Below, piece after piece: positions 9,331 through 64,000 of a DNA stretch of 64,000 bases. This stretch comes from Candidatus Zixiibacteriota bacterium. Its GTDB lineage: Bacteria > UBP14 > UBA6098 > JBKHBT01. The stretch is from the NCBI GenBank assembly GCA_046542255.1, contig JBKHBT010000004.1, positions 13,442-77,441 on the forward strand, given 5' to 3'. The notes under the pieces were generated by a model. That model saw only the letters and a program-made list of their open reading frames with translations, was not told the origin of the DNA and ran no database searches. A program made the position numbers and the translations under genes. Positions within the stretch are counted from its first letter, which is position 1, and every line of letters begins with the position of its first letter.

Positions 9331-9356
9331 TATTTGACAAGTTTTTGGAGGATTCA

Positions 9357-47100: not shown

Positions 47101-50100
47101 AGAAGATATCTGGACAGAAGATGGCGAAGAATGGTATGCCCAGACAACATGCGATGTTCTCGACATTCTCCACGAATGGTATGAGGACGGCGTTATGCAT
47201 GATGGCCGCTTCGACAAGTACGTGACCATCCGCTTCAGAGTCTATTCAAGATTCTATCCGGAAGAGTATGTTGAGTCTTACACATGGAACCTCCGTGTAG
47301 ATAATGAAAAGACCTATCCAGATCTCACAGAAATCGGCGGCGGAGAATTGCCACCGGGAACTGCAATGCACGTAATTCCTGCAGTTACTGAAGAGATCAA
47401 GATTTGTATCACCTCTGATGAGATTGATCAGATCGACTATATCAACTTCACATTGACAGACATGGTAACAGATGTCGTTTATGGAATCACCGATACCATT
47501 GGTGACCCAGAAGATTCATTCCTCCAGGTCGGCGATGCTTCCTATGAAGCAACCTACGATCCTGAAGATGATGTAATCTGCTATACATGGGAAACTCCAG
47601 AAGGCCTTACACCTGGCCTATGGAAGTTCTGTGCTGAAGGTTATGATGAGATCCATATCGTAACCGATGAAGAAGACGGCGAAATAACAGGATATAATAC
47701 CTATATGCATACATTCTGCTTCTGCCGCGACAGCATCCTTGTACCGAATGAAGCATTCCTTGCAAGGGGCGACCACTATGAAGACGCTATCGCAACAATC
47801 TGCGAGAACTATCCTGCAGAACCAAATTGCGACAGCATCTATCCATGGGATATCGAGAATATCTATCCAGATTGGCCAGCATGGTCACATATAGATGGCT
47901 CGATTATTGAAGGCTACGACCATGTCAACAGATTCCAGATTACCACTTTCAATAATCCTGATTGGACAGAATCTGATGTTCTAATGAGAGATTATGTTGA
48001 AACCGGTGGATATCCTGGAGACTCTGTCTTTGTCATGTTCAGAGCTGGAGATGCACTTTGGGTCGATATGCATATTGAAGACGAGTACGGTGGAAATATC
48101 TCAGGCTCCAACCTCGAGATTATTCATCCGCTCGATTCTACCGATATCAGAGACTACATGGGTGCAGACTACTATGTCTATCCATGGGTAATAGACGATC
48201 AGGAAAACCGCTATGACGGCCCTGTCCGTGTTACATTCACAACATACAGAGAAAACTTCGCAGGCGATACAATCGCAACAGATCATGTTACATTCGTATA
48301 CCTGGATACTTATGATCCAGAATACAAAGTTAGCATGACAAGAATGGATGAAAGTCCATTACGTAGCTGTGTTAGCGATGAATATCCGCTCGAAGAAGCT
48401 ATCTGGTGTACAAACGATGATACAGTCTTTATTAAAATCGATTGGTATCAGACAGTATTTGACCAGACAGAAGATGTTTCTGGCTATACTGCCTACGATG
48501 AAGAATTCAATAGCCGTGTTTGGGAACATCTCAGACTATCTATTGATGGCCAGCCACACATGGGCTTCCATGTCGATGATCCTAATGACCTTCTCCAGTC
48601 CAGACTCTGGCAGAGAGATATCATAGGGCCAGTCGATGGTTATATCCCATTCTGGCTCTCACCGATCGATGATGGACCAATGCCTTGGGATGACTTTGGC
48701 GACGATAACTATGAATATCGTTGGCATGTCTCCGATGACCTTCGCGGTCAGGGTATCGCAGACATCTTAGTCAAGGGTCGCGATGCTGCAGGTAATATCC
48801 TTACATATGAAGAAGCAAGAATATCTAATTCATACGGTAAGAAAGTTCTTATCGATGTTGAAGATCCTACAATCGATCCGGAATTGGTCCACCTCACCGC
48901 CGAAGAGATGGAAGCCGATCCGGAAGCATTCGATGACAACTACCTTGGCGAAGGATTTGAAGACCCTGTATCCGGTGGATATGTATTCATCGAGATCTGG
49001 GACCTTGACGAGACAGTCATGCTCGGAGACGATATCTGGGTTAATGATGATGGCTCTGTCGATCCTGCCATTGTAGACCTTATTTCCGGCGATTCAGTTC
49101 TCGTATGCGCAGTTGACTTAGCTGGCAACCGCACCTGCGAGCCTGTTGAAGTAATGCCACATGTTGAGTGCTGCTCATATCATCTCTATCCTGGATTCAA
49201 TATGGTCGGTATCTCCGTCCATCCAGAAGACTCAACCGACCTTCTCGTCGAAAATGTCTTCCCAGGACTCGATGTTTACACACTCGACGGTGGTGTATAT
49301 AATGAAGTACCTGACGGCACATACCTCAACCACAGCGAGGGATACCTTGTTATGGCTGAAGTCGAGACAGACATTGTCCTTTGCGGCGATCCTGTCGAGT
49401 CATTCGAAGCCACAGGACTTCTCCCGGGCTGGAACCTTATTGGTGGTCCGTGGACAACAGTTAGAACAGTTGACGCTGGCGTCGATCCAGCCGATGCTAT
49501 CGACCTCGAAGCAGTCAATGTATATGATGGTGAAACCGGTTCTTATGTACCGACCACCGAATTTGCACACTGCCGTGGCCATCTCGTAATGGTCAGAACA
49601 ACTGATACAGCAACAGTTACTATCCCAGATGATACTCCAGGAGCAAAATATGTCTATACAGGCAAAGAAGCTTCTGAGCTCTGGAATGGTATAATCGATG
49701 TCAAATATGACGATGCAATGCGCAGCCTCACCTTTGGTGTTGCAAGCGGTGCAACCGATGGTATCGATGCTAATGACGTTGCTCTCTTCCCAACACTTCC
49801 AGGCGAAACAGATGCTTATCTCGATAATCATCTCGCCAAGAGTGTGGTAGCCAATGACTATCAGATCGAATGGGACCTCGTTCTACATCAGGATGCAGCT
49901 ATCTCACCGAATGTCGCTGGCGTACCAGAAAATTGGGAAATCACTATCGATGGTATCAATCTCAGAGATGTTGAGAACCTCGACCTCGAAGCAGGAACCT
50001 ATAAGATTTCTGCCAATGTCGCCGAGATTCCAACAAACTTCGAGCTTGCTCAGAATTCCCCGAACCCATTCAACCCGATCACATCGATCAATTACTCGGT

Positions 50101-50311
50101 ACCTTCCGAGTCTCATGTAAACATCGAGATCTTCAATGTTCTTGGTGAAACAGTTACACAGCTGGTTGATGAAGTTCAGGATGCTGGCAAGAGAACCGTC
50201 CGTTGGGATGGAACCGATAGCGAAGGCAATAGCGTAAAATCTGGTGTCTACTTCTATAAGATGACAGCAGATGGCTATAGCCAGACTAGAAAGATGTCAC
50301 TCGTCAAATAA
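41132..50311 (+). CDS. giant (3060-aa) acidic secreted protein with T9SS C-terminal sorting domain (cargo A)
   Basis: Signal peptide MGNRLVIAVLLGLLLFSAVSFG, mature N-terminus QDW. Very D/E/W/Y-rich with no recognisable catalytic motifs. C-terminal ~85 aa (NPFNPITSINYSVPSESHVNIEIFNVLGETV ... SGVYFYKMTADGYSQTRKMSLVK) is a type-A T9SS CTD. RBS AAGGAGACA before the ATG at 41132. Alternative GTG at 41098 or the track start at 41054. Confidence 0.85.
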   Translation: MGNRLVIAVLLGLLLFSAVSFGQDWQYANVFNLVEEGYGPWIPSWYTTSYGRVDSYTPSTPSLRTATMRTADGRDERPVPLNHDQTVLRFDLLSSTDDFFLKGVTVTLIGSPDFDPNEDLAPIHPDTAKTLFCVDDTVKSFYTGFQFYVEKGELAGSNVDSLDTVDIEDMPTPLQFIDDTLMAGTPPTERIYPAAQSWEDVTGTFAGTYPAGWKVWQAQINFRRHIEIRNEADIDPAYGLPFLRMWVLMKPIGCHECIPSSNDGGFIEGLSNRDSFYVQIHETNDLHVYDVLGVDDASGLEIIRDVELPIGRTEVRWDTPDPDPADASRWASSGMLIGGDTIPPFITDLIPRNENPTNGDETDQGGLTGCDEIGDEIWTADSTQPISFVAYDKSTCIDSVFVELRHINDGIPTYFPRRVDSIYFRSQLASSADIENGGAGQPWEVSVRPYGGSWSPWEEVFDVASEFEVVQSGMCADGYCGHDTFFIDVGRDIDNHYLPPFIDGAHIEVTVRAFNRNYNVGSSWAHSEPYAYDAYQDTTWDFYVDLSGPNAELVCPGTSDDNLTEEFYGGAAGWRQDYIEGENIDWRWISDSLPLVQVHLYDDYENVHDETNHGDAFPYWTGAEGGCGINERDFEFAFVVNRLVCDDISHSYITDTFVVDQTDLNQGCWFDEHVNGEEGHMWINFEDLETYRTDLTGTMLDGDPILPFRSGDVLEIHQTELFDDPDYGQGTFRYDVYGWFHTGPADLEVGGSYGIAEAPDPNYGVQNRREVQGDRHIPVDDQAAAIYGVTARRDTLGILRIDLEGPVAPDTFFYPPHGWVTSDTLQVITVDLYDQIGCPLIDQNLSDETDHILDQYVSGIYGASSDENSRLAINLVVKSASGDHHPEYVEFPGRPWEGRTWYVPGWTTNCLSQPHHIEKINERWGTRLTFAPRQHAPFRSGDKVCVTVYAWDNAVTDCDYDTMFTTDLTCADGSTWHTVENWIPGRNWADDDWTTDPLERTHDEVARFCFYVDITPPKLVDSKIYPLCDDTMTFTIRDTSEVISTTFCDEWIAGIGAADLRMWVYDDEDTMPGIHDDFLFFNDLVPAVPTGAVQVDTTHNIVGRENRYMYARMDFGADPAREGIIKVWKDCNANSCHVLEPDDSVVVEIWAGDNPNVPWYAATQRPESEAGYHARNTHSTAPTQYWWWHYYVPGFPISAGDEYWIPCPATSWRRGNHAYTDLDHTEDGLGWENHVYYNWENPNWDKIHQEEFIVQSEVWLKQVQWFNDSAWMKYRSALQYNYPPDLHGKYTTLWAIPDTTEAADFYSEMESMDPYLGTYARDLQFIEAEIYTCTDSIIWEAFWESTPHDDTITWRTPRVELKLWDSEGELVWEYVHHEDYDFIGGEHCDPCFLEYEATRDCCKDGGIMRIGPIEMIHPWLEEVRQDSVPESELHPDNEAYVITDGEGEPVTDDEGEILYTVYGYQHGDQLEVTFGFASRTPNMFTDSSDIHNYNEYHWFYDIDMQAPTARFRRLEGTRGYAEVDCEMMHVDNNEVRIRLEDIADGDVGLHPGGTDADWASTYPIPILKEGTDLVKYMWGTGDDEPAGLEYATSTHYIYQNESHVVQNCAEEDSLARAYTFATPITMYSGLEDGDPPTVLDRTIEQDSIMIADSLYVEAVIQDRLGNEQYLRSNNLGLDNGLPEVKGFAFASFDPELDEFNNWDEDFALLPWEVPDQESLVGVYNFGEVCTVFVRIWFNDNMDMRLADTHTGHIVRFQPDGWTHWFPVIPIDTELHPSLGMYPLAQRYVDYAYGDDYGAGTLLRSVDGEDGEITEAGEAEMLDNGWNSDREWIGYMVIAGDDMMDGIGKIRVQGFDDNAGNTMLARDFNFRIESQYIDPCMIWPDMDRLDTEPIDPWTGETDDELVVTGYDIGDYFCSYEPHEDCYPIVSDCFDRTITDSVVFEFWWDDSMMTVEDMYERIDTIEIDPDSTVHDTVWVDADFHHEIDDMRSEDIWTEDGEEWYAQTTCDVLDILHEWYEDGVMHDGRFDKYVTIRFRVYSRFYPEEYVESYTWNLRVDNEKTYPDLTEIGGGELPPGTAMHVIPAVTEEIKICITSDEIDQIDYINFTLTDMVTDVVYGITDTIGDPEDSFLQVGDASYEATYDPEDDVICYTWETPEGLTPGLWKFCAEGYDEIHIVTDEEDGEITGYNTYMHTFCFCRDSILVPNEAFLARGDHYEDAIATICENYPAEPNCDSIYPWDIENIYPDWPAWSHIDGSIIEGYDHVNRFQITTFNNPDWTESDVLMRDYVETGGYPGDSVFVMFRAGDALWVDMHIEDEYGGNISGSNLEIIHPLDSTDIRDYMGADYYVYPWVIDDQENRYDGPVRVTFTTYRENFAGDTIATDHVTFVYLDTYDPEYKVSMTRMDESPLRSCVSDEYPLEEAIWCTNDDTVFIKIDWYQTVFDQTEDVSGYTAYDEEFNSRVWEHLRLSIDGQPHMGFHVDDPNDLLQSRLWQRDIIGPVDGYIPFWLSPIDDGPMPWDDFGDDNYEYRWHVSDDLRGQGIADILVKGRDAAGNILTYEEARISNSYGKKVLIDVEDPTIDPELVHLTAEEMEADPEAFDDNYLGEGFEDPVSGGYVFIEIWDLDETVMLGDDIWVNDDGSVDPAIVDLISGDSVLVCAVDLAGNRTCEPVEVMPHVECCSYHLYPGFNMVGISVHPEDSTDLLVENVFPGLDVYTLDGGVYNEVPDGTYLNHSEGYLVMAEVETDIVLCGDPVESFEATGLLPGWNLIGGPWTTVRTVDAGVDPADAIDLEAVNVYDGETGSYVPTTEFAHCRGHLVMVRTTDTATVTIPDDTPGAKYVYTGKEASELWNGIIDVKYDDAMRSLTFGVASGATDGIDANDVALFPTLPGETDAYLDNHLAKSVVANDYQIEWDLVLHQDAAISPNVAGVPENWEITIDGINLRDVENLDLEAGTYKISANVAEIPTNFELAQNSPNPFNPITSINYSVPSESHVNIEIFNVLGETVTQLVDEVQDAGKRTVRWDGTDSEGNSVKSGVYFYKMTADGYSQTRKMSLVK

Positions 50312-50498: not shown

Positions 50499-53400
50499 AT
50501 GAGAAAAGTGGGTTTGTCCAGAGGACTTAAGGTCCTGTTCATCCTACTGATTTTCTCGGGAGTTATTTTTGCCCAGGATTGGGCACTTCCGCTGAATTTG
50601 GTTAGTGGTGACGGAGTTGACACTATTACGGTAACACTCGGCGTTCACTATACCGCTACAGACTTATTCGATGAAGGACTGGATATGGCATTTCCGATGG
50701 CGCCACCACCGCCAGTACGTTATGCTTATTTCCCGATAGAAGACCCTGAATATCCGGGTATCAATATGCTCGGTACAGACTTTAGGGATCCAGTATCGGA
50801 ACATGAATGGGTCATTGTACTAGACCGTGACTATACATCCACTGAAAGAGAAGTGTTCTGGGATATGGAAGACCTTCCTTTCCCGGATTCACTAGAAGAT
50901 CTGCTACTTGCAGAAGAGTTGATGATTGGCGCTGCATATCCATCCGAAGAAGTACCAGATACAGCATGGGTAGATATGTCTGAAGTTGAAAGTTTCAATT
51001 TCAGCGCAGGTAAAGTTGTTCATGTCAAATTTATGCCAGAAGGCAGTATCGACATGCACCCACCAACAGTTACTGCATTCTATCCAGAAGATGGAGCTGA
51101 TGGTGTCAGAAGAGTAAGGCCAATAGAATTCAATATCCAGGACGATATTACTGGAGTCGATGAGTCTTCTATTACATTACTAATAAATGATGTCGAAGTA
51201 CCTCACGATGATTTCATTGTTATGGATCCTATTCTTAATGGTTTCCATATCGAATATCTTCCTGAAGATGACTGGCCAGAAATGGAAGATATCTGCGCAA
51301 AAATCATTGCTGCAGACCTGGCCGATCCTGTCCATGTCATGGATACATTCGAATCATGTTTCTCGACACCTTCTGAGCCGCCAGATACATTCCCACCATA
51401 TTATGAGGATCTCTCAATAGAAGACGGAGATACTCTTAATATATGGGAAAGCGTATTTATCAAGCTGCTCGATACGGAACGTGGGGTCGATGAATCTTCG
51501 ATTACTGTTACTGTCAATGGCGTTGAATATACTAATTTTGAGCTTTCTCTATTCACAGAATTCCTATATGATTATAATATAGAAATCATGCCTCCTGCGA
51601 GTGGTTGGAATCCTGGGGAGTACTATGAAGTGGTCGTTCATGGTTGTGATAGAGCAGATGAGCCCAATTGTGTAGATACAACATTTACATTCGTTGCTGG
51701 CGGCATCGAGCCACCACCATTCGAATATTCAATGTATGCTTATTCTATCGAGGGCACAGACACAACCAGAAATATGTTAAGTATCGGAACCGATCCAGAT
51801 GCTACTGAAGGTTATGACAGCGGTTATGATATCGCTTCACCATCACCTGATTTTACAACATTTGGATATTTCCCACTCTCGGATCCGACTTATCCATATG
51901 TAAATAAACTTTCAAAAGATGTTAAAAGAACTGCTCAGAGCGTTACATGGCAGATCGAATTCAATAATCCAGACGATGTCGTTGGCATTGCATGGGATAT
52001 TGATGAACTCGAAGAGATAATCGATACAATCGGTTCGATTAGAATTGGTTATGGAAATAGAGACAGCTTGCGCTGGAGAGACATGCTTCTCTATGACCAC
52101 ATCGATTTTGCTCCAGAGCATAATTGCTATATTCGTTATACGACGGTTACAACAGATACAGCTGCTCCGAGAGTATGGGGACGTGATCCTTATCCGGCAG
52201 AAGTAGATGTTCCACTTTCAACGAATATTCAATTTGATCTGTTAGATCCTGAAAGCGGCGTAGATCCAAGCTCTATCGTGCTTCGTTTCGGTACAATTGG
52301 TGGCTCACTCACAACGGTAGATCCCGAAGATTATACACTCGAAATGTTACCAACAGGCTACAGAGTGGTTTATGATAGACCTGGAATGCTCAACTATAAT
52401 ACAACATACGTAGTTAGAGTTACAGCTTCCGATGAAGCCCCATCAGCAAATTCCGCAACTCATGAATGGCAGTTCACCACAACGACTACTTGTGCTCCTA
52501 TGTTTGAGAGCCCACTTAGCTTGACCGATGGTGAAGATGATATTTCATTAGTTATCGGAACAGATGACGATGCATTGGTTGGCCGCGATGACATGGATGT
52601 ACCAATTCCAGTCGCACCACCAAGCGGATTCTTCGCATATTTCCCAATTGAAGACGATCCTATTTATGACATGCTTTCAACCGATATCAGGCCAAATTGC
52701 GCAGGAGAACAGGTTTGGGAGATCATTAAAGACCGAGCAGACGGCCCAGTTACAATTTCTTGGGATACCGAAGATATCTTTTTCGATGAGGAATGGCAAC
52801 TAAGAGTTGCAGCCGCTGCAATTGGCGAAGAACCAGAACATGCCGATTATGAAACTATAATGACCGAAGTTGACGAATTCACTTTTGCCGCTGGCGAAAA
52901 TGCATTCATCAAACTCGGTATTTGGGACACAACAGAATCTTACTGCATAAATGGAAGCGTTTCTCTATGGGGAAGCGATTCTACGACAATCGTAAATGTC
53001 AGTGTTGCTCCTATTGGCGTAACATACGACTCACCACCAGGCGGCGGCCCATTCGAGGTTTGTCACCTGCCAAATGATACAGAATATACATTAGTGCTCT
53101 CCGCAGAAGGCTATGTACCAGAAACATTGTCTGTTTACATTTCCGGTGAAGACTACATAATTGCCGACCCAATCGAACTCAGGCCTCCGGGAACATTTGT
53201 TCACGGTACGGTTATGGTCGAAGGTGAAGATGCTCCAGGTATAAGCATACTTCTAGGTGAAGATGCTACTGTTACAAGAGCCGATGGTTCCTGGGCAATC
53301 GATAATGTCCTTCCTGATGTAGATATGATATGCTATTCCGGATTTGGTCTTGGATATCCAGATACATGCGAAGAAATCGATGTTACCGGTGAAGACACTG

Positions 53401-55229
53401 TATATGTCGAATTCGATTATGTTGCTCCTTCACTAAGAGTATATGGAACAGTTAGCTTAGATGGCGAACTGACCGAAGGTGTCGATATCTATAGATGCGG
53501 TGAAGATACACCGATTGCAACTTCCGATTCACTCGGAAACTACGAAATCATCGATGTAGAAGTCGGGCCACATTGCCTCGTAGCTCGCTACCCAGGTTAT
53601 GATGACCATGAAGAGAGCTTCTATGTTACCGATAATACCGAAATTGATTTCAACCTTATTCCTGGTGACATCACAATCAGCGGAACAGTCTCAAATGACT
53701 GTAGCGAAGATGTAGCAGGTCTGACTGTTGAAATTTCCGGCCCAGCACCATCTGTCTATCTCGGACCCGATGGTTCCTATGAATTTGAAGGACTCGACTG
53801 GGGCGAATATACAATTTCAGTTATCGGCGAATATCATGCAATGACCGAAACAACAGTTACCACAGAAGGTGATATGGTAGTCGATATTACTGCTCCATGT
53901 CTCCCATGTGTTACAAGTTTCACAGTTGTTGCAGCAGAGCTTGAGCGTCCGCTCGAAGGTGATGAAGAACTTAACAATACAATCACCTGGGCAGCTCCTG
54001 TAACAGATGTTCCAGTAGATCATTATGAACTCTATCGAAATGGAACAATGTATGCAGCAGATATTCCATCTGATACAGAAGAATATATCGATACAGATGT
54101 CGATGCTGATGCAAGATATGACTATTACTTAGTAGTAATCTATGATGTAGAAGGCGAATACAATTACAGCATGGATTGTGCTTCAGGTTCCGGAACACCA
54201 ACCATGACTCCTGATATGAATGCAATTCTTATCATAGACTATGATGGTGAAGCAACACCACTCAGCGATGGCACAGTCGCTACTGAAGTTGCTATGGAGA
54301 ACCTGCTTCTTAGCCCATCGTTAGCTATGGAAGATGTCGGTATCACAATCACCGATCAGAATCCTCCAGACCTCAATGGTTATGAACTTGCCGACTATGA
54401 CTTCGTTATTGTCGAGCTTGGTATCAGAGATTCTGATGATGACCTTATGACTGATGATGTTTGTGAGGACCTCAATGCATATGCAGATATGGATAGGCCA
54501 GGCGGAACAGCTATTTTAGTCGAAGGCCCTGACTTTGGTATGAACTATGGTTCTGCCAGTGGCGTTCAGAGAGACTTCTTCAATAAATTTGGTATCAGCC
54601 ATAGTGCAAGCCACGATGGAAGTGATGAGACCGAAGGTAATGTCGACTCATTATTCATCTCCAGGTCATTTGCACATTTCGAGCCATATGGTACATATGC
54701 TTATCGAACAGAAGCCGACAGATTTGTTGACGACTTCACAGCAGAAACAGCAATTCCATTTGTATATGGAAATGATATGCTCGTTCGTGCAACAGAGAAA
54801 GTTGTCGATGGCAATAATTATAGATTTGCTTCTGCAATCTATACGGCTGCTGTCTCAGGAAGCTATGGCTCAACAGAAATGGCTCATAGAATTATTGGCC
54901 ATTATTTGAACCGTGTAGGCATAGCTAATGAAGCTATCACAGAAGTCGAAGTTACAAAGGCACCTGAATCATTCGAGATTAGCAGAGTCTATCCGAATCC
55001 ATTCAACCCGGCAACAACGATTGAGTTCGATGTTTCTGAAGATGCCAATGTAACTCTCGAAGTTTACGATGTTACCGGTAATCTGGTAAGAACTCTCGTA
55101 GAACAGCACATGACAACCGGCAAATACAATGTTGACTTTAATGCCAGTGGACTGGCATCTGGAACATACTTTGTCAAACTGGATGTTAATGGCAAGACAG
55201 TTACAAATAAACTGATGTTCATGAAATAA
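50499..55229 (+). CDS. giant (1576-aa) acidic T9SS cargo protein B of a modular paralog family
   Basis: Signal peptide ending IFA, then QDW. Three copies of a novel ~140-aa module (cores at 50682-50756, 51825-51899, 52587-52667). Ig-like Big_5/SbsA-type domains. Four carboxypeptidase-regulatory-like domains. FN3-like domain. Alpha/beta module (LIIDYDG ... FVIVELG ... ILVEGPDFG). T9SS CTD (YPNPFNPATTIEFDV ... GTYFVKLDVNGKTVTNKLMFMK). RBS AAGGAGGAG. Confidence 0.9.
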   Translation: MRKVGLSRGLKVLFILLIFSGVIFAQDWALPLNLVSGDGVDTITVTLGVHYTATDLFDEGLDMAFPMAPPPPVRYAYFPIEDPEYPGINMLGTDFRDPVSEHEWVIVLDRDYTSTEREVFWDMEDLPFPDSLEDLLLAEELMIGAAYPSEEVPDTAWVDMSEVESFNFSAGKVVHVKFMPEGSIDMHPPTVTAFYPEDGADGVRRVRPIEFNIQDDITGVDESSITLLINDVEVPHDDFIVMDPILNGFHIEYLPEDDWPEMEDICAKIIAADLADPVHVMDTFESCFSTPSEPPDTFPPYYEDLSIEDGDTLNIWESVFIKLLDTERGVDESSITVTVNGVEYTNFELSLFTEFLYDYNIEIMPPASGWNPGEYYEVVVHGCDRADEPNCVDTTFTFVAGGIEPPPFEYSMYAYSIEGTDTTRNMLSIGTDPDATEGYDSGYDIASPSPDFTTFGYFPLSDPTYPYVNKLSKDVKRTAQSVTWQIEFNNPDDVVGIAWDIDELEEIIDTIGSIRIGYGNRDSLRWRDMLLYDHIDFAPEHNCYIRYTTVTTDTAAPRVWGRDPYPAEVDVPLSTNIQFDLLDPESGVDPSSIVLRFGTIGGSLTTVDPEDYTLEMLPTGYRVVYDRPGMLNYNTTYVVRVTASDEAPSANSATHEWQFTTTTTCAPMFESPLSLTDGEDDISLVIGTDDDALVGRDDMDVPIPVAPPSGFFAYFPIEDDPIYDMLSTDIRPNCAGEQVWEIIKDRADGPVTISWDTEDIFFDEEWQLRVAAAAIGEEPEHADYETIMTEVDEFTFAAGENAFIKLGIWDTTESYCINGSVSLWGSDSTTIVNVSVAPIGVTYDSPPGGGPFEVCHLPNDTEYTLVLSAEGYVPETLSVYISGEDYIIADPIELRPPGTFVHGTVMVEGEDAPGISILLGEDATVTRADGSWAIDNVLPDVDMICYSGFGLGYPDTCEEIDVTGEDTVYVEFDYVAPSLRVYGTVSLDGELTEGVDIYRCGEDTPIATSDSLGNYEIIDVEVGPHCLVARYPGYDDHEESFYVTDNTEIDFNLIPGDITISGTVSNDCSEDVAGLTVEISGPAPSVYLGPDGSYEFEGLDWGEYTISVIGEYHAMTETTVTTEGDMVVDITAPCLPCVTSFTVVAAELERPLEGDEELNNTITWAAPVTDVPVDHYELYRNGTMYAADIPSDTEEYIDTDVDADARYDYYLVVIYDVEGEYNYSMDCASGSGTPTMTPDMNAILIIDYDGEATPLSDGTVATEVAMENLLLSPSLAMEDVGITITDQNPPDLNGYELADYDFVIVELGIRDSDDDLMTDDVCEDLNAYADMDRPGGTAILVEGPDFGMNYGSASGVQRDFFNKFGISHSASHDGSDETEGNVDSLFISRSFAHFEPYGTYAYRTEADRFVDDFTAETAIPFVYGNDMLVRATEKVVDGNNYRFASAIYTAAVSGSYGSTEMAHRIIGHYLNRVGIANEAITEVEVTKAPESFEISRVYPNPFNPATTIEFDVSEDANVTLEVYDVTGNLVRTLVEQHMTTGKYNVDFNASGLASGTYFVKLDVNGKTVTNKLMFMK

Positions 55230-55252
55230 TATCAGTTAAATATACATTTAGA

Positions 55253-55284
55253 AGCCCTCCTCTTAGCAGGAGGGCTTTTTTTTT
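55253..55284 (+). terminator. rho-independent terminator after cargo gene B
   Basis: Stem AGCCCTCCT, loop CTTAGC, stem AGGAGGGCT, followed by 9 T. Confidence 0.8.
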
Positions 55285-55513
55285 GACAAAATACAGAAGA
55301 ATATGAAAAAAAGACTTGCAATAATCATAAAAATGCCTATAAATTAAGCATATGCAGTTGAATATCTGTAGTTAATTCTTATGTGCATCATAGAGAAGTA
55401 AGTAAATAAAGGATTTGGAACGATAAAATTATTGATATGAAAAATAAATTGATATTTGATAAAAAAGGATATATATTACATAAAAATAAACTCTTAATAT
55501 GGAGGGCAGATAG

Positions 55514-58500
55514 ATGATTAGGAAATTAACTTTCTTATCTGTGATTATCTTAGCATTATGTGTTTATGCTCAAGATTGGACTATGCCACTTATGATTTAT
55601 AGCGGTGATATGGCCGATACTGTTACAGTATCCTTTGGCATCGATTACCGTGCAAGTGATAACCATGACACTGGAATCGACCTGGCATTTCCAGTTGCTC
55701 CGCCTTCTGGAATGTATGCCTATTTTCCAGTGTCAGACCCGGACCATCCCGGCATAGACATGCTTGCATCCGATATACGAAGCTCGTATTCGGAATTCGA
55801 AGAATGGGAGCTTCACATAGAACGTGATATGTCTTCAGGAACCAGAATTGTGGTATGGAATGAAGAAGATTTGCCCATAGAAGAAAGTCTCCTTCTCGCA
55901 TGGGCGGATGAGCTTCTTATTGGAAGCGCATATCCCGGCGACTCAGTTGAAGAATGGACAAGTATGCTTTCGGCTTCAATGATTGAACCATTGGCAGGCG
56001 AAATTGTTTGGATTAGAGCAACTATGTCACCAGAATACAATATGCCGCCAGAGATAACTGAATTTATTCCCTATGAAGATGCCGTTGAGATCGGAGTGGA
56101 CGAGCCTATCGAATTCACGATTGTCGATGATACTCTCGATGTCGAGATTACAAGCCTTACTATAATCGTAAATGGCGATTTGGTCGAATACGAAGATTTC
56201 GAATATAGCCCTGTTCTCCATGGATATGAAGTTTCGTATATTCCTGATGAGGGATGGGAACCGGCTACAGAATATTGCATAGATATTGTCGCACAGGATA
56301 TTGCAAGCCCTCCTGCTATTATGGATACTTTTCATAGATGTTTCACCACAGAAGATATGTATCCGGATACATTGGCACCGTATTATCAGAGAGCATCTAT
56401 CGAAGATGGTGCAGAAAATGTCTTTGTCTATCAGCATTTGAATCTCGAAATCCGAGACTTAGAAGCCGGTGTCGATAATGGTTCTATCGATGTTTATGTT
56501 AATGATGAAAGATATACCAATATTATAATTGCCAATATTCCCGGGCATGCACATGATTATAATCTCGATGTGATTCCGCCAGAATATGGTTGGGAACTTT
56601 GCACGCCATACGAGATAACAATCGAAGCATGTGATTTATCCAGCGATATAAATTGCTCGACACATTCCATATCGTTTACAACAACCTGCGACCCAATGGG
56701 AGAATGGACATATCGACTAAAGACCTGGATCGTCAATGATGATGATACATTGCATAATTTTCTTACTATCGGCACAAATTCCGAAGCTACAGAAATGTAT
56801 GACCACGGAATCGATGTCCCCATTACAATGCCCGAGTTTGCAAGCTATGGCTATCTTCCTATCGATGACCCGGAATATCCTATGTATAGAAGACTACAAA
56901 ACGATATTAGAAGAAATGCTGAAAGGATAACCTGGCAAATTAACTATCACAACCCAATCGACAATTGCGGTATCGATTGGAATGTAAGTGAATTATATGA
57001 TCTCGAAGACATTCTCGGCGGCGAATTCAAGATTGGCTATGGAACCGATACGCGACATATTTCATGGTTCGATATGACCCATACAAATCGGCTTACATTC
57101 GACCCGGGCGAAATTGTCCTTATCAAATATGAATATGGAAGCACAGATACCCTGCCACCTGAATTCACCAATATTAGTCCAGAACCTTCTGAACTGGAAC
57201 TGGGAATGCCGGAAATTACCGATTTTTCAGTTGATATTGTCGATGCCGAAAGCGGCGTGGATGCATCGAGTATTGCGATGTATATCAATGATGAGATGGT
57301 CGAGCCGGAATATCTTGCGATGTCGCTTCTTTCTCGTGGTTTCAGAGTAACATATACGCCGCCCGAACCACTCGGTTACGAAGTTTACGATTTCAGAGTA
57401 GAGGCCTGCGACAATAATCGCCCGGCCGGAAATTGTGGCGAATATGAATGGACTTATGACCTTATTCCATGCCTTCCAGAATTTGGCCTTGATTTCCAGG
57501 TATTCGATATAAATACCCATGGCGATACATTGTCGAATGCAACACTGCGTATTGGGATCGATGAGGATGCCCTTGTCGGCCGCGATGATTTCGATTCTCC
57601 GACATTCAGGCCACCAACGGGGACTTTCTTTTATATGCCAATCGATGATGAAGCCTATGATTACCTCGGCGCTGATTTCCGTCCTGCTTGCGATAGCGCA
57701 CAGATATGGCATATCATTAACCAGGGTGTTACGGGCGGAAGAATGCGTATTTCATGGGATCGTGATGAAGTTTTCGAAGACGATAGATGGGAATTAGGTA
57801 TAGTAGCTGGCCCTATTGGCGGCGATGTACCAGAAGATGAAGAATTCATTAGCATGTCGAGTAATGATTACTTTACCTATGCTGCTTCACAGACCGTCTA
57901 TATCAAAACTCTACCTTATATTCCACCGACTTTCTGTCTGACAGGCTCTGTAAGTTTCTGTGCCGATTCGACAACACGGCCAACACTCTATATATCCGAG
58001 CTTGGATATGAAGAGATATTACCTGACGGTGGGGGAGATTTCGAGATATGTAATCTACACAATGGCATCTACGAGGTCATTATCGCTGCTGAAGGATATG
58101 ATTCTGCTACATATATCATTGAGATCGATGGTGATGACTATGCTATGGAAGGCCATCAGTTCTGCAATCGGGTCAATCTAAATGGTAGCCTGAGTTTGGA
58201 TGACGAAGTTATGCCTTATGCGCCTGTTTCATTGGATGGCATAGTTGACACAACAAATGTCGATGGAGAATTCGCTTTCGAAAACATGATTCCTGGAACA
58301 TATGAGATCTGCTTCTCTGCCCTTGGGGTTTGCTATCCAGACACATGTTTCGATATTGTAATAGATTCGGATATGGAATTAGATTTTAACTATGAAAGCC
58401 CATCTTTGAATATTACAGGGCATATTGAATACGATAGCATCCCGGCAGAAGGCGCTATGATATATCTTTGCGATAGCCCCGGAATTGTTGTCGCTGAAAC

Positions 58501-60160
58501 CGATGAATTCGGAAACTATCTCATAGAGGAGATAGCATGTGGTACACAGTGTTTCGAAATCCATTATGAAGATTTCCCAGTGCTGGATACATCGCTGTTC
58601 GTTCATACTGACACTATTGTCGATATCGAATATTTCGGAGATTACAATTACGATATTTCAGGAAGTATCACATTGGACTGCGGATATACGCCATTCGGAA
58701 CTATTATCGAAATTGGCGATGAGTCGGCTGTGGCTGATTCATTCGGTGATTTCGAATTTGAAGATATTCCAATGGGTGAATATGAAATGCAGATAACTCG
58801 TGAATATGCAGCAACGATAGATACAATAATAAACCTTGAAAGCGATACTTCACTGGCATTTATGATGCAATGCCTTCCAGAAGTAGCAGATATCGATGTC
58901 GAAGGTTTCGATATCGAAAGGCCATATGAATCCGGCGAATTCAATATCCATGTATCATGGGAAGCTCCTATAACAGATGTCGAGATAGAGAGCTATAATA
59001 TTTATCGTTCAGAAAGCTACTTTGCAAGGCCAGAGGACGGCACTCTGATAGCCACGCTCGATTCTGTAATCGATTTCTACGATAGGGATATATCTCCTGA
59101 TGTGAGTTATTTCTACGGGATCGAAGTTACATATGCTGTCGAACCATATAATGGTAAATTCTCAGATGTGGAGCACGATATGTCAACGGTTTCACCTGAC
59201 CCCAATGAATTATTGATAATCGACTTCGATGATGGCGCTACGCCAATCGATGGTTCTGGCGCAGAAGCTGCTATGCTGGATCTTATGGAATCACCGGCAC
59301 TCGGCTATGATGGCGGTATAACTATTACATCGCAGAATCCCGAGAACCTCGATGGCTATATGCTGGATGATTATGATATCGTATTCGTCGAACTTGGCAT
59401 CGATGATGACGATAATCCTTTGATGCCTGTCTCGATTGTCGATCAGCTTCTTGATTTCATAGATGGTAGCGGTTTGATTTACGTTGAAGGGCCGGATTTT
59501 GGCAAGCTATATCGAGAAGCTGGCGGCGACTATGAAGAATTCTTCCGCGCATTTGGCATCGGTTGGGCAGCTTCTTCAGATGGTTACGATGAAGGTATTG
59601 GCAATGTCGAATCGATTATTGGCTTCGAATCCTTCTTTGGCGATGAAATATCAGCATCTTATGCTACGCATACTCCTGCCGACCGCTCTGTCGATGAGCT
59701 TAGGCCTATGGAAGCATCCGAAATCATAACATCACAGAATGATTCCAAAACAAGGACTACATACTATCAGGACGGCGGAATGCAGCTTATAGCATCTTCG
59801 ATATACCTGACCGCTGTTCAGGGAAGAGCCACGCAGGCACAGATCATGGGTAGATATCTTGGAATCGATAATATTCAGGAGAATGAGATCGCAGTACCTG
59901 AAGATATAACAGTTGACATTGCGCCAAATCCCTTCAATCCGATTACCAGCATTAATGTCAAATTGGCAAATACTGCCGAGACAGTTTTGGAGATCTATGA
60001 TATCAATGGAAAGAAGATCACTACCATATTTGAAGGCAAATTACCAGCAGGAAACCATATCTTTGACTTCGATGGCAGAGAACTTTCCTCAGGTATCTAT
60101 TTTGCCAATGTCAAAACAAATGAAGATATTATATCCATGAGAATGATACTTATCAAATAG
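55514..60160 (+). CDS. giant (1548-aa) acidic T9SS cargo protein C, paralog of B
   Basis: Signal peptide ending VYA, then QDW. Same domain order as B. Module cores at 55679-55750, 56807-56887, 57587-57664. Alpha/beta module LLIIDFDDG ... IVFVELG ... LIYVEGPDFG. CTD APNPFNPITSINVKL ... SGIYFANVKTNEDIISMRMILIK. Confidence 0.9.
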   Translation: MIRKLTFLSVIILALCVYAQDWTMPLMIYSGDMADTVTVSFGIDYRASDNHDTGIDLAFPVAPPSGMYAYFPVSDPDHPGIDMLASDIRSSYSEFEEWELHIERDMSSGTRIVVWNEEDLPIEESLLLAWADELLIGSAYPGDSVEEWTSMLSASMIEPLAGEIVWIRATMSPEYNMPPEITEFIPYEDAVEIGVDEPIEFTIVDDTLDVEITSLTIIVNGDLVEYEDFEYSPVLHGYEVSYIPDEGWEPATEYCIDIVAQDIASPPAIMDTFHRCFTTEDMYPDTLAPYYQRASIEDGAENVFVYQHLNLEIRDLEAGVDNGSIDVYVNDERYTNIIIANIPGHAHDYNLDVIPPEYGWELCTPYEITIEACDLSSDINCSTHSISFTTTCDPMGEWTYRLKTWIVNDDDTLHNFLTIGTNSEATEMYDHGIDVPITMPEFASYGYLPIDDPEYPMYRRLQNDIRRNAERITWQINYHNPIDNCGIDWNVSELYDLEDILGGEFKIGYGTDTRHISWFDMTHTNRLTFDPGEIVLIKYEYGSTDTLPPEFTNISPEPSELELGMPEITDFSVDIVDAESGVDASSIAMYINDEMVEPEYLAMSLLSRGFRVTYTPPEPLGYEVYDFRVEACDNNRPAGNCGEYEWTYDLIPCLPEFGLDFQVFDINTHGDTLSNATLRIGIDEDALVGRDDFDSPTFRPPTGTFFYMPIDDEAYDYLGADFRPACDSAQIWHIINQGVTGGRMRISWDRDEVFEDDRWELGIVAGPIGGDVPEDEEFISMSSNDYFTYAASQTVYIKTLPYIPPTFCLTGSVSFCADSTTRPTLYISELGYEEILPDGGGDFEICNLHNGIYEVIIAAEGYDSATYIIEIDGDDYAMEGHQFCNRVNLNGSLSLDDEVMPYAPVSLDGIVDTTNVDGEFAFENMIPGTYEICFSALGVCYPDTCFDIVIDSDMELDFNYESPSLNITGHIEYDSIPAEGAMIYLCDSPGIVVAETDEFGNYLIEEIACGTQCFEIHYEDFPVLDTSLFVHTDTIVDIEYFGDYNYDISGSITLDCGYTPFGTIIEIGDESAVADSFGDFEFEDIPMGEYEMQITREYAATIDTIINLESDTSLAFMMQCLPEVADIDVEGFDIERPYESGEFNIHVSWEAPITDVEIESYNIYRSESYFARPEDGTLIATLDSVIDFYDRDISPDVSYFYGIEVTYAVEPYNGKFSDVEHDMSTVSPDPNELLIIDFDDGATPIDGSGAEAAMLDLMESPALGYDGGITITSQNPENLDGYMLDDYDIVFVELGIDDDDNPLMPVSIVDQLLDFIDGSGLIYVEGPDFGKLYREAGGDYEEFFRAFGIGWAASSDGYDEGIGNVESIIGFESFFGDEISASYATHTPADRSVDELRPMEASEIITSQNDSKTRTTYYQDGGMQLIASSIYLTAVQGRATQAQIMGRYLGIDNIQENEIAVPEDITVDIAPNPFNPITSINVKLANTAETVLEIYDINGKKITTIFEGKLPAGNHIFDFDGRELSSGIYFANVKTNEDIISMRMILIK

Positions 60161-60188
60161 CAAAGAATCTTCAAAGAAATCATAAAAA

Positions 60189-60220
60189 GGGTTGCTCTAA
60201 TTGCGAGTAGCCCTTTTTTT
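60189..60220 (+). terminator. rho-independent terminator after cargo gene C
   Basis: Stem GGGTTGCTC, loop TAATTGC, stem GAGTAGCCC (with G-U pairs), then T7. TATAAT-like element at 60224-60229 immediately downstream. Confidence 0.6.
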
Positions 60221-60280
60221 GTATATAATGGCTCTATTGCCATCAAAAAAGAAATTCAATTTATTGCTCTGGAGGGCAAA

Positions 60281-63200
60281 ATGATAAAGAAGTTTGGTTT
60301 GATATTAATTATTCTATTTTCCATCTCACTATTTGGACAGGCATGGGATTTTGATCTTAGGGTCATAAATGAGAGCGGTGAAGAAGCCGACACCACATGG
60401 GAAGTTACACTGGGTACAGATTTTGGTGCAAGCGATGGCTATGATGATGGCATCGATGTTCTTCTTCCTGTTGCGCCTCCGGGAGAGCCATTCATATATT
60501 TCCCACTGGATGACCCAGATTATCCACTTATGACAATGCTTACAGCCGACATACGCTCAACCAGCGAAACATCCTTTGAGTGGAAAATTTCAACTGGAAA
60601 TATTTATTCAGGAAGCAATAGGGCAGAATGGAGCGAGAGAGATTTTCCATTCGATGAGACATCCAGTGCTACGATGCAAATAGGCGGAGCATATCCGGGT
60701 ACAGAGCCTTCATCATGGCAGGATATGTCAAGAACCACCAGCTTCGATTATTCTCTGGGGGAGGTTATCTGGGTAGTGGTCGAGATGGACCCTTCGATCG
60801 ATACACAACCGCCCGAAGTTATATCGACATTTCCCTCTGATGGCGTCACTGGAGTCGATACTATGACGACTACCAGAATCGAACTTATCGACTCAGATTC
60901 CGGGCCGGATAGCACTTCGATACAGATTACATACGAAGGCTCGATTATTCCGCATACTGACCTTGTGATCGATAGAATCGCATCTGGCTATGAGATACGA
61001 TACTTGCCCACAGATGGTTGGCCGGCAGGGGATACAGTCTGCATCGATGTCGATGCTCAGGATAATGCGACACCGCCAAATGTGATGTCAACATACACAT
61101 ACTGTTTTGAGACAAGCGAACCATTCGACCCATCGAGATATCCGCCATATTTCACAGATTTTTCCATTTCGGATGGCGATACTGGAATCGTTGTCTCAGA
61201 GGAAATCACATTTAAGATAAGAGATACTCATGAAGGCGTAGATTCCTCGACAATCGAGATTTTATTTGGCATGTCTCCTTTCGATTTTTACGAGGTCGAA
61301 TCCACTTCCGGCGGCGATTTCGATTATGAAGTAACCCTATTCCCACCGCCGGGTGGCTGGACAGTTGGCAATACATATGATGTAGAGGTTTCGGCATGTG
61401 ATCTCTACAGCCCTGCTAATTGTTCAGATACCACATTTTCTTTCACTGTCGAATCATCTGCTTCGATAACGCCATTTGAACTTCCGATGACCTTCTGGAC
61501 TTCCATGGGTGCAAGCGATACAAGCTATTCAAATATTACAATAAAAACATCGCCACTGGCAACAGATGGCTTTGATCCTGGAATCGATGCTGCATGTGCA
61601 AGCCCGGGTTTCGCTTCTTTCGGATATTTTCCGCTCGATGATCCTGAAGCTCCGATGTATGACAAACTTTCGACTGATGCAAGATTCAATGGCGAAGATA
61701 TTCAATGGGAAGTCGAGAAAAATAGGCCCGATACATATAATGGCATCCGCTGGAGTAGCTCTGATATCGAAGATATCATAGTTTCTACAATGGGCCTTCT
61801 CAGAATCGGCTATGGCCCGGATGAGATGTCTCTGTTCTGGGTCGATATGAGCGAAGAAACCGAAATTGAATTTGACCCGGACGATCTTGTCTTTATAAGA
61901 TTTACAATGGATACCAGTGCTTCTTCCGAACCGATTGTACGGAATATACTGCCCGAAGACGGCGATTCAAATGTATCTATCGATGAATGCATAAGTTTCG
62001 AAGTGATAGATGCCGATGATGGTATCGATTCATTCCACTTATTTCTTGGCATCGAAGGCGGTTCGATGATCGAGATTGCTCCATCGGATATGGATATAAC
62101 GGTAATAAGCGGTGGGTATCATGTGGAATATTGTCCTGATGAGCCATTCGAATATAGCTCGATTTACAATATTCGAGTAGAAGCTAATGATTTTTCCGAT
62201 AATGAAACAATTCGTGAATGGTCTTTCTCGACACAGGTATGGTGCCTCGGTACACCATTTACTACCATGCTCACGCTCTACGATTTCGACAGCGATACCA
62301 CAATCGACAATCTATTTTTCGGAATTGGCGAAGCATCGACAGATAGCATCGACCCTACCGATGTTACACTGCCGCTTCTTCCGCCCGGCGTATCTTTCTA
62401 TTTCCCATGCGAAGCCACAATGGTCGATGCATTCACAACAGACATGCGCTCGATGTGCCCGGAAACAACAATCGTTTGGCAGGTACTCGTCAATTTAGGA
62501 GGAGGCGATTATCGCTGCGAATGGGATCCATCCGAAATAGTCGGCGAAGGCGACTGGAAACTTGCTATCGCAAAGAGTCCCGTTTTCGAAGATCGTCCGG
62601 TTATAGATTCTTTCACTGCAATGACTGAGATAGACCATATCGATTATGAAGATGGTGAAAAGCTATGGATTATCTATACCCCAGAGCATCTTTCGACCGA
62701 ACCGCCGACATACTGCATTTCAGGCAGCGTTGGTTTCTGTGATGATGATGATTTAACCACCGAAGCGACTGTGAATATTCTCGAAATAGCATCGGCTATC
62801 GTTACCGACCCCGGCGGTGGAGATTTCGAGGTATGCGATCTCGATACAGGCTCATATACTCTGGTTTTCACTGCTGAAAGCTATGAATCTGAGACGCTTA
62901 TGGTCGAGCTTATCGATGAGGATGTTTCGCTCGAGCCGATCGAGCTTTGGTCGCCTTCCTGCGAGCCGCTTTCTATTGTCCGTGGAAATGTTAGCTGGGA
63001 AGAAGAGCCAGTAGAAAGCATCACTGTTACATTGGGTTGGGCTTTTGAAACCACCGATGAAGAAGGCTATTATGAATTTGCCGGCATGATTGCAGGCGAT
63101 TACGAAATTTGCTTCAATAGCTTCCCAGCAGAATGCTATAGCGATACATGCTTTGATATATCGATTCCTGAAGGTGGAGATACCATTACAGTCGATTTTG

Positions 63201-64000
63201 ACTACTCGCTCCCGACAATCGACATTACTGGCAACGTGATGCTCGATGGCGAAGCCTTTTCTGATGTCGATATTTATTTCTGCGACTCTTCAGAAGCCAT
63301 CGCTACAACAGACGATATTGGCGAATTCGATGTCACTGGCCTTATGCCTGGAACATATTGCATCGAAATATCTCCAGAAGGATATGAAACAATAAGCCGG
63401 ACAATTTCATCCTGCTCAGATACTTCGATAAGCTTTGAATATTTCACCGATATGGTTACAGCCATAATAGACATTTCCACCGATTGCGGAATGGATGACA
63501 GCATCTTTGTCGAGATTAATGGCGATTTATATTATGGCTCGCATCATGAAATTTCAGTTTCTGCCGGTGATTCATTATTTATTGAAGCCTATGGCGAGAA
63601 TCTTACCGCTATCGATACACTTTTCGCTTCGGTTGGAGAAGACATATCAATAGAACTGGATCTGTATTGTATCCTTTGCGTAGATCGCTTGATTGCAGAA
63701 GGCGTATCTTTGACAAGGCCGCTTATTGATGAAACGATCGCCAATACCTTGAGCTGGGATGCACCTTCGACAGAGCTTGAAATAATTGGTTATATCATAA
63801 ATCGAGATGGCGAAGCAATAGATACGATTTCTGGCACGGAATATATAGATGTAGATATCGAGAGCGATTTGGAATACGAGTATTCGCTGGATATTCTCTA
63901 TGAAGATGGCTATGCAAGATATGATTGTGTTTTAGAGACTGCTATGTCGGTCGTAGCACCTGACCCTAATAGGATACTTATTATTGATTATGACGATGGT
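60281..64000 (+). CDS. giant T9SS-cargo paralog D (5' complete, runs off window end)
   Basis: Not in the ORF track (no in-window stop). RBS GGAGGG plus the ATG at 60281. Signal peptide MIKKFGLILIILFSISLFG, then QAW. Module cores at 60449-60533, 61580-61663, 62360-62452. Carboxypeptidase-regulatory-like and FN3-like domains. Alpha/beta module begins (RILIIDYDDG) at the window end. Confidence 0.85.
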   Translation, partial: MIKKFGLILIILFSISLFGQAWDFDLRVINESGEEADTTWEVTLGTDFGASDGYDDGIDVLLPVAPPGEPFIYFPLDDPDYPLMTMLTADIRSTSETSFEWKISTGNIYSGSNRAEWSERDFPFDETSSATMQIGGAYPGTEPSSWQDMSRTTSFDYSLGEVIWVVVEMDPSIDTQPPEVISTFPSDGVTGVDTMTTTRIELIDSDSGPDSTSIQITYEGSIIPHTDLVIDRIASGYEIRYLPTDGWPAGDTVCIDVDAQDNATPPNVMSTYTYCFETSEPFDPSRYPPYFTDFSISDGDTGIVVSEEITFKIRDTHEGVDSSTIEILFGMSPFDFYEVESTSGGDFDYEVTLFPPPGGWTVGNTYDVEVSACDLYSPANCSDTTFSFTVESSASITPFELPMTFWTSMGASDTSYSNITIKTSPLATDGFDPGIDAACASPGFASFGYFPLDDPEAPMYDKLSTDARFNGEDIQWEVEKNRPDTYNGIRWSSSDIEDIIVSTMGLLRIGYGPDEMSLFWVDMSEETEIEFDPDDLVFIRFTMDTSASSEPIVRNILPEDGDSNVSIDECISFEVIDADDGIDSFHLFLGIEGGSMIEIAPSDMDITVISGGYHVEYCPDEPFEYSSIYNIRVEANDFSDNETIREWSFSTQVWCLGTPFTTMLTLYDFDSDTTIDNLFFGIGEASTDSIDPTDVTLPLLPPGVSFYFPCEATMVDAFTTDMRSMCPETTIVWQVLVNLGGGDYRCEWDPSEIVGEGDWKLAIAKSPVFEDRPVIDSFTAMTEIDHIDYEDGEKLWIIYTPEHLSTEPPTYCISGSVGFCDDDDLTTEATVNILEIASAIVTDPGGGDFEVCDLDTGSYTLVFTAESYESETLMVELIDEDVSLEPIELWSPSCEPLSIVRGNVSWEEEPVESITVTLGWAFETTDEEGYYEFAGMIAGDYEICFNSFPAECYSDTCFDISIPEGGDTITVDFDYSLPTIDITGNVMLDGEAFSDVDIYFCDSSEAIATTDDIGEFDVTGLMPGTYCIEISPEGYETISRTISSCSDTSISFEYFTDMVTAIIDISTDCGMDDSIFVEINGDLYYGSHHEISVSAGDSLFIEAYGENLTAIDTLFASVGEDISIELDLYCILCVDRLIAEGVSLTRPLIDETIANTLSWDAPSTELEIIGYIINRDGEAIDTISGTEYIDVDIESDLEYEYSLDILYEDGYARYDCVLETAMSVVAPDPNRILIIDYDDG

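Follow-up and report, generated by a model that had tools for sequence, protein, structure and literature searches.

Genes and architecture of the locus

We analyzed a 64,000-nucleotide stretch of DNA (hereafter, the window) from a metagenome-assembled genome (MAG) of Candidatus Zixiibacteriota; the contig is also present in the Logan assembly of run SRR11308339. Four large genes on the same strand, which we call A, B, C, and D, occupy the last third of the window (Table 1). An earlier note, made by reading the letters of the window and the translations of its open reading frames, had described an uncharacterized module of ~140 aa that is repeated three times in each of the proteins B, C, and D. 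Our analysis shows that all nine represent a single autonomous domain of about 150 aa, extracellular and with a predicted beta-sandwich fold, and that the domain belongs to a large family that is unnamed in the libraries we searched.

The NCBI annotation of B and C goes no further than "T9SS type A sorting domain-containing protein" (T9SS, type IX secretion system). In B, a signal-peptide-like N terminus is followed by module 1, an immunoglobulin (Ig)-like region of the Big_5 type, module 2, a Big_5 domain, and module 3; next come CarboxypepD_reg repeats, an fn3-like region, a domain of ~270 aa without assignment, and the T9SS sorting domain. All Pfam and NCBIfam matches in B, C, and D are confined to regions outside the modules. 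Big_5 Ig-like matches from Pfam lie between modules rather than on them (residues 553 to 661 of B and 174 to 278 of D), several stretches matching CarboxypepD_reg-type domains lie C-terminal of module 3, and the fn3 match is weak. The sorting domain model TIGR04183 scores 47.0 bits in B and 37.8 bits in C (curated cutoff of 23), and PF18962 (Por_Secre_tail) scores 51 and 35.5 bits (cutoff of 27). Judged by these C-terminal type A sorting domains above the cutoff, B and C are predicted T9SS cargo proteins; the C terminus of D lies outside the window. Among the scanned genes of the 64-kb window, the only part of the genome covered, we saw no T9SS machinery genes (PorK/L/M/N, SprA, PorU/V).

Table 1. 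Genes, modules, and other features of the window. Coordinates of the nine modules of B, C, and D are hidden Markov model (HMM) envelopes. Bit scores of these nine modules are against an HMM built solely from 66 family members outside the window.
Feature	Position in window	Strand	Length or residues	Bit score	Remarks
Gene A	41054-50311	+	3085 aa		Giant T9SS cargo protein
Gene B	50499-55229	+	1576 aa		NCBI MFP4458250.1; Candidatus Zixiibacteriota MAG
Gene C	55514-60160	+	1548 aa		NCBI MFP4458251.1; architecture as in B
Gene D	60281-64000	+	at least 1240 aa		Continues past window end; visible architecture as in B
Module B1	50574-51050	+	B 26-184	124	Directly after signal-peptide-like N terminus
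Module B2	51714-52157	+	B 406-553	113	
Module B3	52497-52934	+	B 667-812	112	Has the position-3 Cys pair
Module C1	55571-56038	+	C 20-175	130	
Module C2	56699-57148	+	C 396-545	122	Copy used for the structure model
Module C3	57476-57925	+	C 655-804	87	
Module D1	60338-60799	+	D 20-173	137	
Module D2	61469-61921	+	D 397-547	104	
Module D3	62252-62695	+	D 658-805	86	Most divergent of the nine
Divergent, shortened tenth module	49676-50002	+	A ~2875-2983	27	Directly before the T9SS sorting domain of A
Two repeats in A	49190-49600		A ~2713-2850		Before the degenerate module
C-terminal domain of B	54171-54983		B 1225-1495		Before the sorting domain
PilY1-domain protein	9345-12992		1215 aa		

Nine copies of one module in proteins B, C, and D

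The nine motif cores lie where the earlier note had placed them, each in frame 0 of its own gene and each with the quoted motif in its translation. They belong to segments of 147 to 160 aa, and MAFFT aligns the nine segments end to end. Nine columns of this alignment are invariant in all nine copies: D33, D37, P44, Y52, P54, D69, W79, W96, and M135 in the numbering of B1. Read by eye from the sequence, the N termini of B, C, and D are hydrophobic and end in A or G before QDW or QAW, giving signal-peptide-like boundaries at VIFA/QDW in B, CVYA/QDW in C, and SLFG/QAW in D. Module 1 begins at the next residue in each protein, in agreement with the note, which had the module start directly after the signal peptide.

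We scored the modules against the HMM built without any sequence from the window. The nine modules reached 86 to 137 bits (E values of 9e-25 to 2e-40), compared with a maximum of 12.6 bits for the same HMM over 9,000 composition-preserving shuffles; we therefore consider the repeats to be real. In pairwise BLASTP comparisons, copies at the same position of different proteins share 29 to 46% identity (E values of 1e-15 to 8e-43), and copies at different positions share 23 to 42% identity, mostly with E values of 1e-2 to 1e-16. A few cross-position pairs involving D3 or C3 are not significant by themselves and are joined to the others transitively. The earlier note had made its proposal depend on significant alignment of the segments to one another, and they do align by BLASTP, by MAFFT, and by the non-window HMM. 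An uncharacterized module with three copies per paralog is thus upheld. The count of nine is right for B, C, and D and too low for the locus, because A carries a divergent tenth copy.

Conservation and predicted fold

We measured conservation over 269 aligned instances from the whole family, using the numbering of C2. The most conserved positions are G25 (97%), D35 (95%), D39 (99%), D69 (97%), R71 (89%), W79 (88%), W94 (99%), and M126 (88%). The nine modules of the window carry this family signature: D35, D39, D69, W79, W94, and M126 are invariant among them, and the only departures are a K for G25 in D2 and a K for R71 in B2. The earlier note had called an APP...YFP..DP.YP stretch invariant and had likened it to a ligand-binding or structural proline/aromatic clamp. 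Across the family this stretch is less conserved than the signature residues: the PPxPP prolines reach 64 to 73%; in the A-Y-F strand, A is kept in 52% of instances, Y in 59%, and F in 75%; and in the DP motif, D is kept in 50% and P in 38%.

An AlphaFold model of C2, computed with a 75-sequence alignment, reached a predicted local distance difference test score (pLDDT) of 96.1 and a predicted template modeling score of 0.89. A first run that used only the nine window copies gave a pLDDT of 61 and was discarded. The model has ten strands and one helix (residues 96 to 106). In its secondary structure, the stretch A-T-D-G-[FY]-D-x-G-x-D...PPxPP forms a loop of 23 residues that connects strands 2 and 3, A-Y-F forms strand 3, and L-x-x-D-I-R forms strand 4. 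Of the two Trp residues, one is part of strand 5 and the other stands at the end of strand 6; both are in phase with, and on the same face as, hydrophobic residues. This placement suggests that they are core residues, which in the model is more likely than the surface patch proposed in the earlier note.

The model also suggests how the conserved residues might work together. The two Trp would form the core of a sandwich of about 10 strands, and D69 and R71, on the face of strand 4 opposite L66 and I70, would contact the aspartates of the loop. In this arrangement the loop between strands 2 and 3 would be pinned onto the sheet by D35, D39, D69, and R71, through either a salt-bridge network or a structural Ca2+ site, and the module is possibly Ca2+-stabilized. 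A mean-field coupling analysis of the 269 instances returned the loop-to-strand 4 pairs 30-70, 42-67, and 39-69; it is too noisy to give strand topology and weakly supports the placement of the loop on the sheet.

The three Asp and one Arg are the only near-invariant polar residues, and the family has no conserved His, Ser, Cys, or Glu. A domain with no conserved catalytic-type residues besides Asp and Arg, with a small predicted beta-sandwich fold, and with multiple copies per protein is highly improbable as an enzyme. Nothing specific speaks for catalysis, beyond the fact that one family member also contains a subtilase domain.

Search for known relatives

We looked for relatives of the module in Pfam, NCBIfam, and the PDB, and our statements about known relatives refer to these three libraries. 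Neither Pfam nor NCBIfam matched the modules of B, C, and D at E ≤ 0.1, and a scan of 75 diverse modules one by one gave no consistent match. Profile searches of PDB sequences with the module returned nothing below an E value of 0.4, and a Foldseek comparison of the C2 model with solved structures returned no match at E ≤ 1e-3, with TM-scores (template modeling scores) of at most 0.26. The earlier note could not assign the module to any family and had named a match to an existing Pfam domain as the finding that would speak against it; we found no Pfam, NCBIfam, or PDB family that contains the module, and no close structural neighbor. Our literature searches found nothing on Zixibacteria with T9SS, and the papers that they turned up on T9SS cargo in general were confined to the sorting domain, PorA, and PorZ.

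Our first guess was that the module is a cohesin. We rejected this identity. The cohesin HMM PF00963 does not match B, C, or D at E ≤ 0.1, nor any of the 75 diverse modules; hhalign of the modules against 11 cohesin domains present in this set of proteins gave a probability of 0.8%; and cohesins occur in these proteins as separate, adjacent domains. A structural test of the module model for a cohesin-type jelly-roll fold also came out negative. Similarly, no carbohydrate-binding module (CBM) family in Pfam matched B, C, D, or the 75 diverse modules, and the model has no close neighbor among solved CBMs. Two other candidates were set aside. An Ignavibacteria motif, "...ATDGxD...PPxPP..GAFDARF", occurs in variants that are themselves family members (e.g., P0034), and we found no named model for it. 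A viral origin was suggested by a single degenerate-pattern match in IMG/VR (L025), which has no HMM match and is therefore a chance match.

One structural match exceeded a TM-score of 0.5. The viral model I1ZBD4 in BFVD (379 aa, unnamed) aligns to the module model with a TM-score of 0.58 normalized by the query, an E value of 1.4e-3, and 14% identity, and it might share the fold of the module.

It is quite unlikely that the module belongs to a known superfamily, such as jelly-roll CBMs, the PPC or collagen-binding domains, or a PorA-type domain, and has diverged so far that our methods missed the link. The similarity to I1ZBD4 is compatible with such a relationship, and our comparisons of structure covered the PDB and viral models while the profile-profile comparison covered cohesin. 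Against it stand the low TM-scores with solved structures, the lack of a consistent Pfam or NCBIfam match among the 75 diverse members, and the empty PDB profile searches.

Size, distribution, and domain company of the family

We searched 1.84 billion cluster representatives (clusters at 50% identity) exhaustively with HMMER and obtained 797 family matches at E ≤ 1e-3, of which 151 pass a threshold of 1e-10 and 32 one of 1e-30. By comparison, a word-indexed protein search returned 1 fragment, 0, and 3 matches for three queries, the last of which was an Ignavibacteria-type member; we attribute these nearly empty results to a limitation of the index. Members come from unclassified "bacterium" MAGs, Zixibacteria, UBP14, and Calditrichota and, among the archaea, from Methanoculleus sp. 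10 (WP_292489688.1) and Methanoregula. Most are T9SS cargo proteins of bacteria in the Fibrobacterota-Chlorobiota-Bacteroidota (FCB) group, and the family is common in surface proteins of uncultured sediment and hot-spring bacteria and of some methanogens. By our own reading of the sequences, some archaeal-type members appear to end in a dockerin-like or PGF-CTERM-like tail rather than a T9SS domain. The source databases give the members uninformative names, which call them hypothetical or refer to an Ig-like, T9SS sorting, or PKD domain.

We counted copy number, placement, and protein size in the best 150 family matches. A single copy is present in 66 proteins, two copies in 45, three in 29, and four to six in 10; copies are directly tandem in 17 of the 150, and arrays reach six copies. 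The first module lies within 60 aa of the N terminus in 111 of the 150 proteins. Single-module proteins of at most 330 aa make up 39 of the 150, and the module is within 60 aa of the N terminus in all but one of them (38/39) and is accompanied by a T9SS-type tail in 23. The small members P0037 and P0061 are complete and consist of a signal peptide, the module, and a sorting domain. MBN2541668.1, with 270 aa, is an example of a member in which the module stands alone.

Pfam domains that co-occur with the module were counted in the 81 matches that are not of the B type. Por_Secre_tail was found in 42 of them, CarboxypepD_reg in 17, Cohesin in 7, Dockerin in 4, and PKD in 4; further companions are cadherin-like/Big_9 domains, LTD, and the subtilase domain mentioned above. 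In six proteins (P0082, P0084, P0113, P0115, P0128, and P0134), a cohesin is followed by the module within 5 to 25 residues. Another member, P0085 (1232 aa; cluster member MFP4459263.1), combines a single N-terminal module with CarboxypepD_reg domains. Its accession number is near those of the window proteins (MFP44582xx), so the same MAG probably encodes at least one further module-bearing protein elsewhere.

The sorting domains of B and C, together with those in 42 of the 81 other matches, argue for an extracellular location of the module. The high pLDDT obtained for C2 alone and the existence of small proteins with a single module indicate that it folds autonomously.

Three ancient positions

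We compared 75 modules from 25 three-module proteins that belong to different clusters and organisms. For 67 of the 75 modules, the best match is the module at the same position in another protein. Mean bit scores between same-position modules of different proteins are 57 at position 1, 56 at position 2, and 41 at position 3, and mean scores between different positions of different proteins are 31 to 41. Because same-position copies are closer to each other than cross-position copies, the triplication predates the whole protein family and not only the duplications that produced B, C, and D. The earlier note had concluded that the triplication is older than the gene duplications, and our position comparison puts this conclusion on a firmer basis than the one given there. 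That basis was a roughly equal divergence of copies within and between proteins, and it does not hold, as the same-position copies of different paralogs are clearly closer.

On this sequence comparison, we regard the three positions as ancient, specialized subtypes. The modeled helix of C2 at residues 96 to 106 is an extra helix of position 2, and a corresponding insertion (IDELEEIIDTIG-like) is present at position 2 of B, C, and D. Modules at position 3 (B3, C3, and D3) usually have a pair of Cys residues: the first belongs to a C-x-P-x-F motif at the N-terminal edge, the second to an R-P-x-C motif that follows D-x-R. The pair is a candidate position-specific disulfide with no counterpart at positions 1 and 2.

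These data bear on the idea that the module is a passive structural domain, a spacer that stiffens and extends the stalks of large surface proteins in the way of the neighboring Ig, PKD, or fn3 domains. Big_5 and CarboxypepD_reg domains alternate with the modules, tandem arrays extend to six copies, the conserved Trp and hydrophobic residues resemble core positions, and we found no similarity to binding families, all of which a spacer would explain. A spacer would not explain the many small proteins made of a signal peptide, a module, and a sorting domain, which have nothing to space, or the strong preference of the module for the N terminus (111/150). The near-invariance of three Asp and one Arg across Bacteria and Archaea and the persistence of distinct position-specific subtypes since ancient times are also at odds with a purely passive role, and we consider this explanation unlikely.

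Protein A and the A-B gene pair

Outside its sorting domain, A is for the most part without a match in Pfam. The tenth copy of the module, in front of that domain, keeps the core LTFGVASGATDGIDAxDV and has lost the D-x-R motif, and its N-terminal third alone is aligned confidently. Orthologs of A score 18 to 46 bits over up to 140 HMM positions at the same place before the sorting domain. Shortly upstream of the degenerate module, A contains two repeats of the form "(P)GWNLIG / PGFNMVG ... G(Y/H)LVM(A/V)", which may be another unnamed domain. Similar "G-Y-W-v" C-terminal endings are found in the module-bearing proteins P0121, P0129, P0145, and P0147, none of which has a T9SS tail.

Full-length relatives of B (25 to 33% identity) are encoded at 23 loci in GTDB genomes, all from uncultured organisms. 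These are the Guaymas genomes B30_G16 and B46_G16, the Auka AUK isolates, the Zodletone Zod_Metabat bins, the Zixibacteria genomes SpSt-1142 and 4484_93, and UBP14 UBA6098. At all 12 loci with enough upstream flank (L002-L005, L007-L010, L012, L014, L020, and L023), a collinear ortholog of A lies directly upstream of the B-like gene. The A orthologs share 33 to 40% identity with A over ~2,760 aa (E = 0) and are better conserved than the B orthologs. At L010, L012, and L014, further module-bearing genes are located downstream.

The gene pair raises the prospect that the module serves in assembly, with module-module or module-partner contacts joining the A-like giant and the B-like proteins into one surface structure, for instance a layer or fiber; this corresponds to the oligomerization option of the earlier note. 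Consistent with such a role are the adjacency of A-like and B-like genes in all 12 informative loci, which come from different MAGs, the degenerate module before the sorting domain in A and its orthologs, the clustering of module-bearing genes at the three loci above, and the six proteins in which a cohesin directly precedes the module. Synteny, however, links the proteins functionally and not the modules, and the family is also present in many protein architectures, and in many organisms, that lack A and B. We judge an assembly role to be unlikely.

Other features of the window

The genes upstream of A to D are ordinary chromosomal genes, among them LpxK, a Kdo transferase, a GT4 glycosyltransferase, RmlD, a Wzi-like protein, a TonB-dependent receptor, YidC, MnmE, DnaX, and a PilY1-like protein. 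The PilY1-like protein (Table 1) contains a PilY1 beta-propeller domain and resembles type IV pilus tip adhesins; it is encoded close to sigma-54 and two-component regulators and has no connection with the module. Proteins A to D are all highly acidic, with isoelectric points of about 4.05 to 4.1 and Asp plus Glu contents of 19 to 20%. The G+C content rises from 0.34 to 0.42 in the first 42 kb to 0.43 to 0.47 over genes A to D, with a dip to 0.40 at the junction of B and C (54 to 56 kb). The higher values over A to D could stem from the extreme Asp- and Glu-rich composition of the proteins rather than from foreign origin.

A domain of ~250 to 270 aa before the sorting domain is the best-conserved part of the B family, with equivalents in C and in the relatives of B. 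Its motifs include ILxIDFDNGATP, YDxVxVVLGI, and IYVEGPDFGxDY. It has no Pfam match and no PDB profile match (best E value of 0.04), and the alternation of its strand-like motifs suggests an alpha/beta fold. Possibly this domain forms the functional "head" of the B-type proteins.

Proposed role of the module

We tentatively favor binding or adhesion without catalysis as the role of the module, and we regard this as the most likely of the readings considered here. In characterized Bacteroidota, T9SS cargo is described as anchored at the cell surface by its C terminus (PMC8545088). Because of this anchoring model, we infer that the proteins are displayed with the N terminus outermost. Module 1 would then form the cell-distal tip, with modules 2 and 3 set at intervals along a stalk by the Ig-like Big_5 domains. 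The module can be nearly the whole of a mature surface protein and must therefore have a function of its own, which argues for binding or adhesion, as does its preference for the distal end of the protein (near the N terminus in 111 of 150). The presence of an invariant polar cluster in both Bacteria and Archaea, in a module that lacks catalytic-type residues, points in the same direction. In addition, cohesin, dockerin, PKD, cadherin-like/Big_9, LTD, and CarboxypepD_reg domains and one subtilase place the module in adhesin-type company. Carbohydrate binding and oligomerization, the two roles named in the earlier note, are candidates; we found no relationship of the module to CBMs or cohesins.

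Several observations weigh against a binding or adhesion role and the structural proposal that accompanies it. Modules 2 and 3, which lie in the interior of the proteins, could also be purely structural. We found no similarity to CBMs, lectins, or cohesins, either by sequence or by structure. In our own reading of the consensus, the spacing D-G-x-D-x-G-x-D differs from the canonical DxDxDG or EF-hand spacing of calcium sites. Finally, the coupling analysis is noisy, with an effective number of sequences of about 261, and near-invariant columns figure in many of its highest-ranked pairs.

A more far-reaching possibility is that the module is the founder of a structurally new extracellular superfamily common to FCB-group bacteria and Methanomicrobiales, and that in Zixibacteria-like lineages it assembles the A-like/B-like pair into a new T9SS-dependent surface structure. 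We think this combined proposal rather unlikely.

The module introduces no new biological principle; the family is new, but non-catalytic extracellular modules as a class are familiar. The interest of the family lies in its extent, as at least about 800 clusters at 50% identity carry a well-folded domain of 150 aa that is nameless in the searched libraries. Defining it would improve the annotation of the surface proteomes of candidate phyla and adds a candidate for a new beta-sandwich topology. The conserved two-gene unit, with an A-like giant and a B-like protein of three modules, offers an entry to the question of particle or cell-cell attachment.

Comparison with known systems

Among known domains, cohesin (PF00963) resembles the module in being an extracellular beta-sandwich of ~140 aa that is repeated in large, scaffold-like surface proteins and co-occurs with dockerins. 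The N-terminal domain of PorA from Porphyromonas gingivalis (PDB 6KJK) also counts among the closest known systems. The collagen-binding domains of the clostridial proteins ColG and ColH (PDB 5IKU and 3JQW) are likewise non-catalytic beta-sandwich binding modules that occur singly or in tandem in secreted proteins, and the title of entry 5IKU notes calcium, a parallel to the Asp cluster proposed here. We regard the likeness to a PDB entry titled as a histone H3 binding protein (8% identity, 59% of the module aligned, and unrelated biology) as generic sandwich similarity. The Ig-like spacers (Big_5 PF13205, PKD, and fn3) share both their proteins and an extracellular, repetitive, all-beta context with the module. 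In contrast to these spacers, the module is ~50% larger (147 to 160 aa versus about 90 to 105 aa), has no Pfam match, and has a single long structured loop of ~23 residues that carries a conserved acidic motif.

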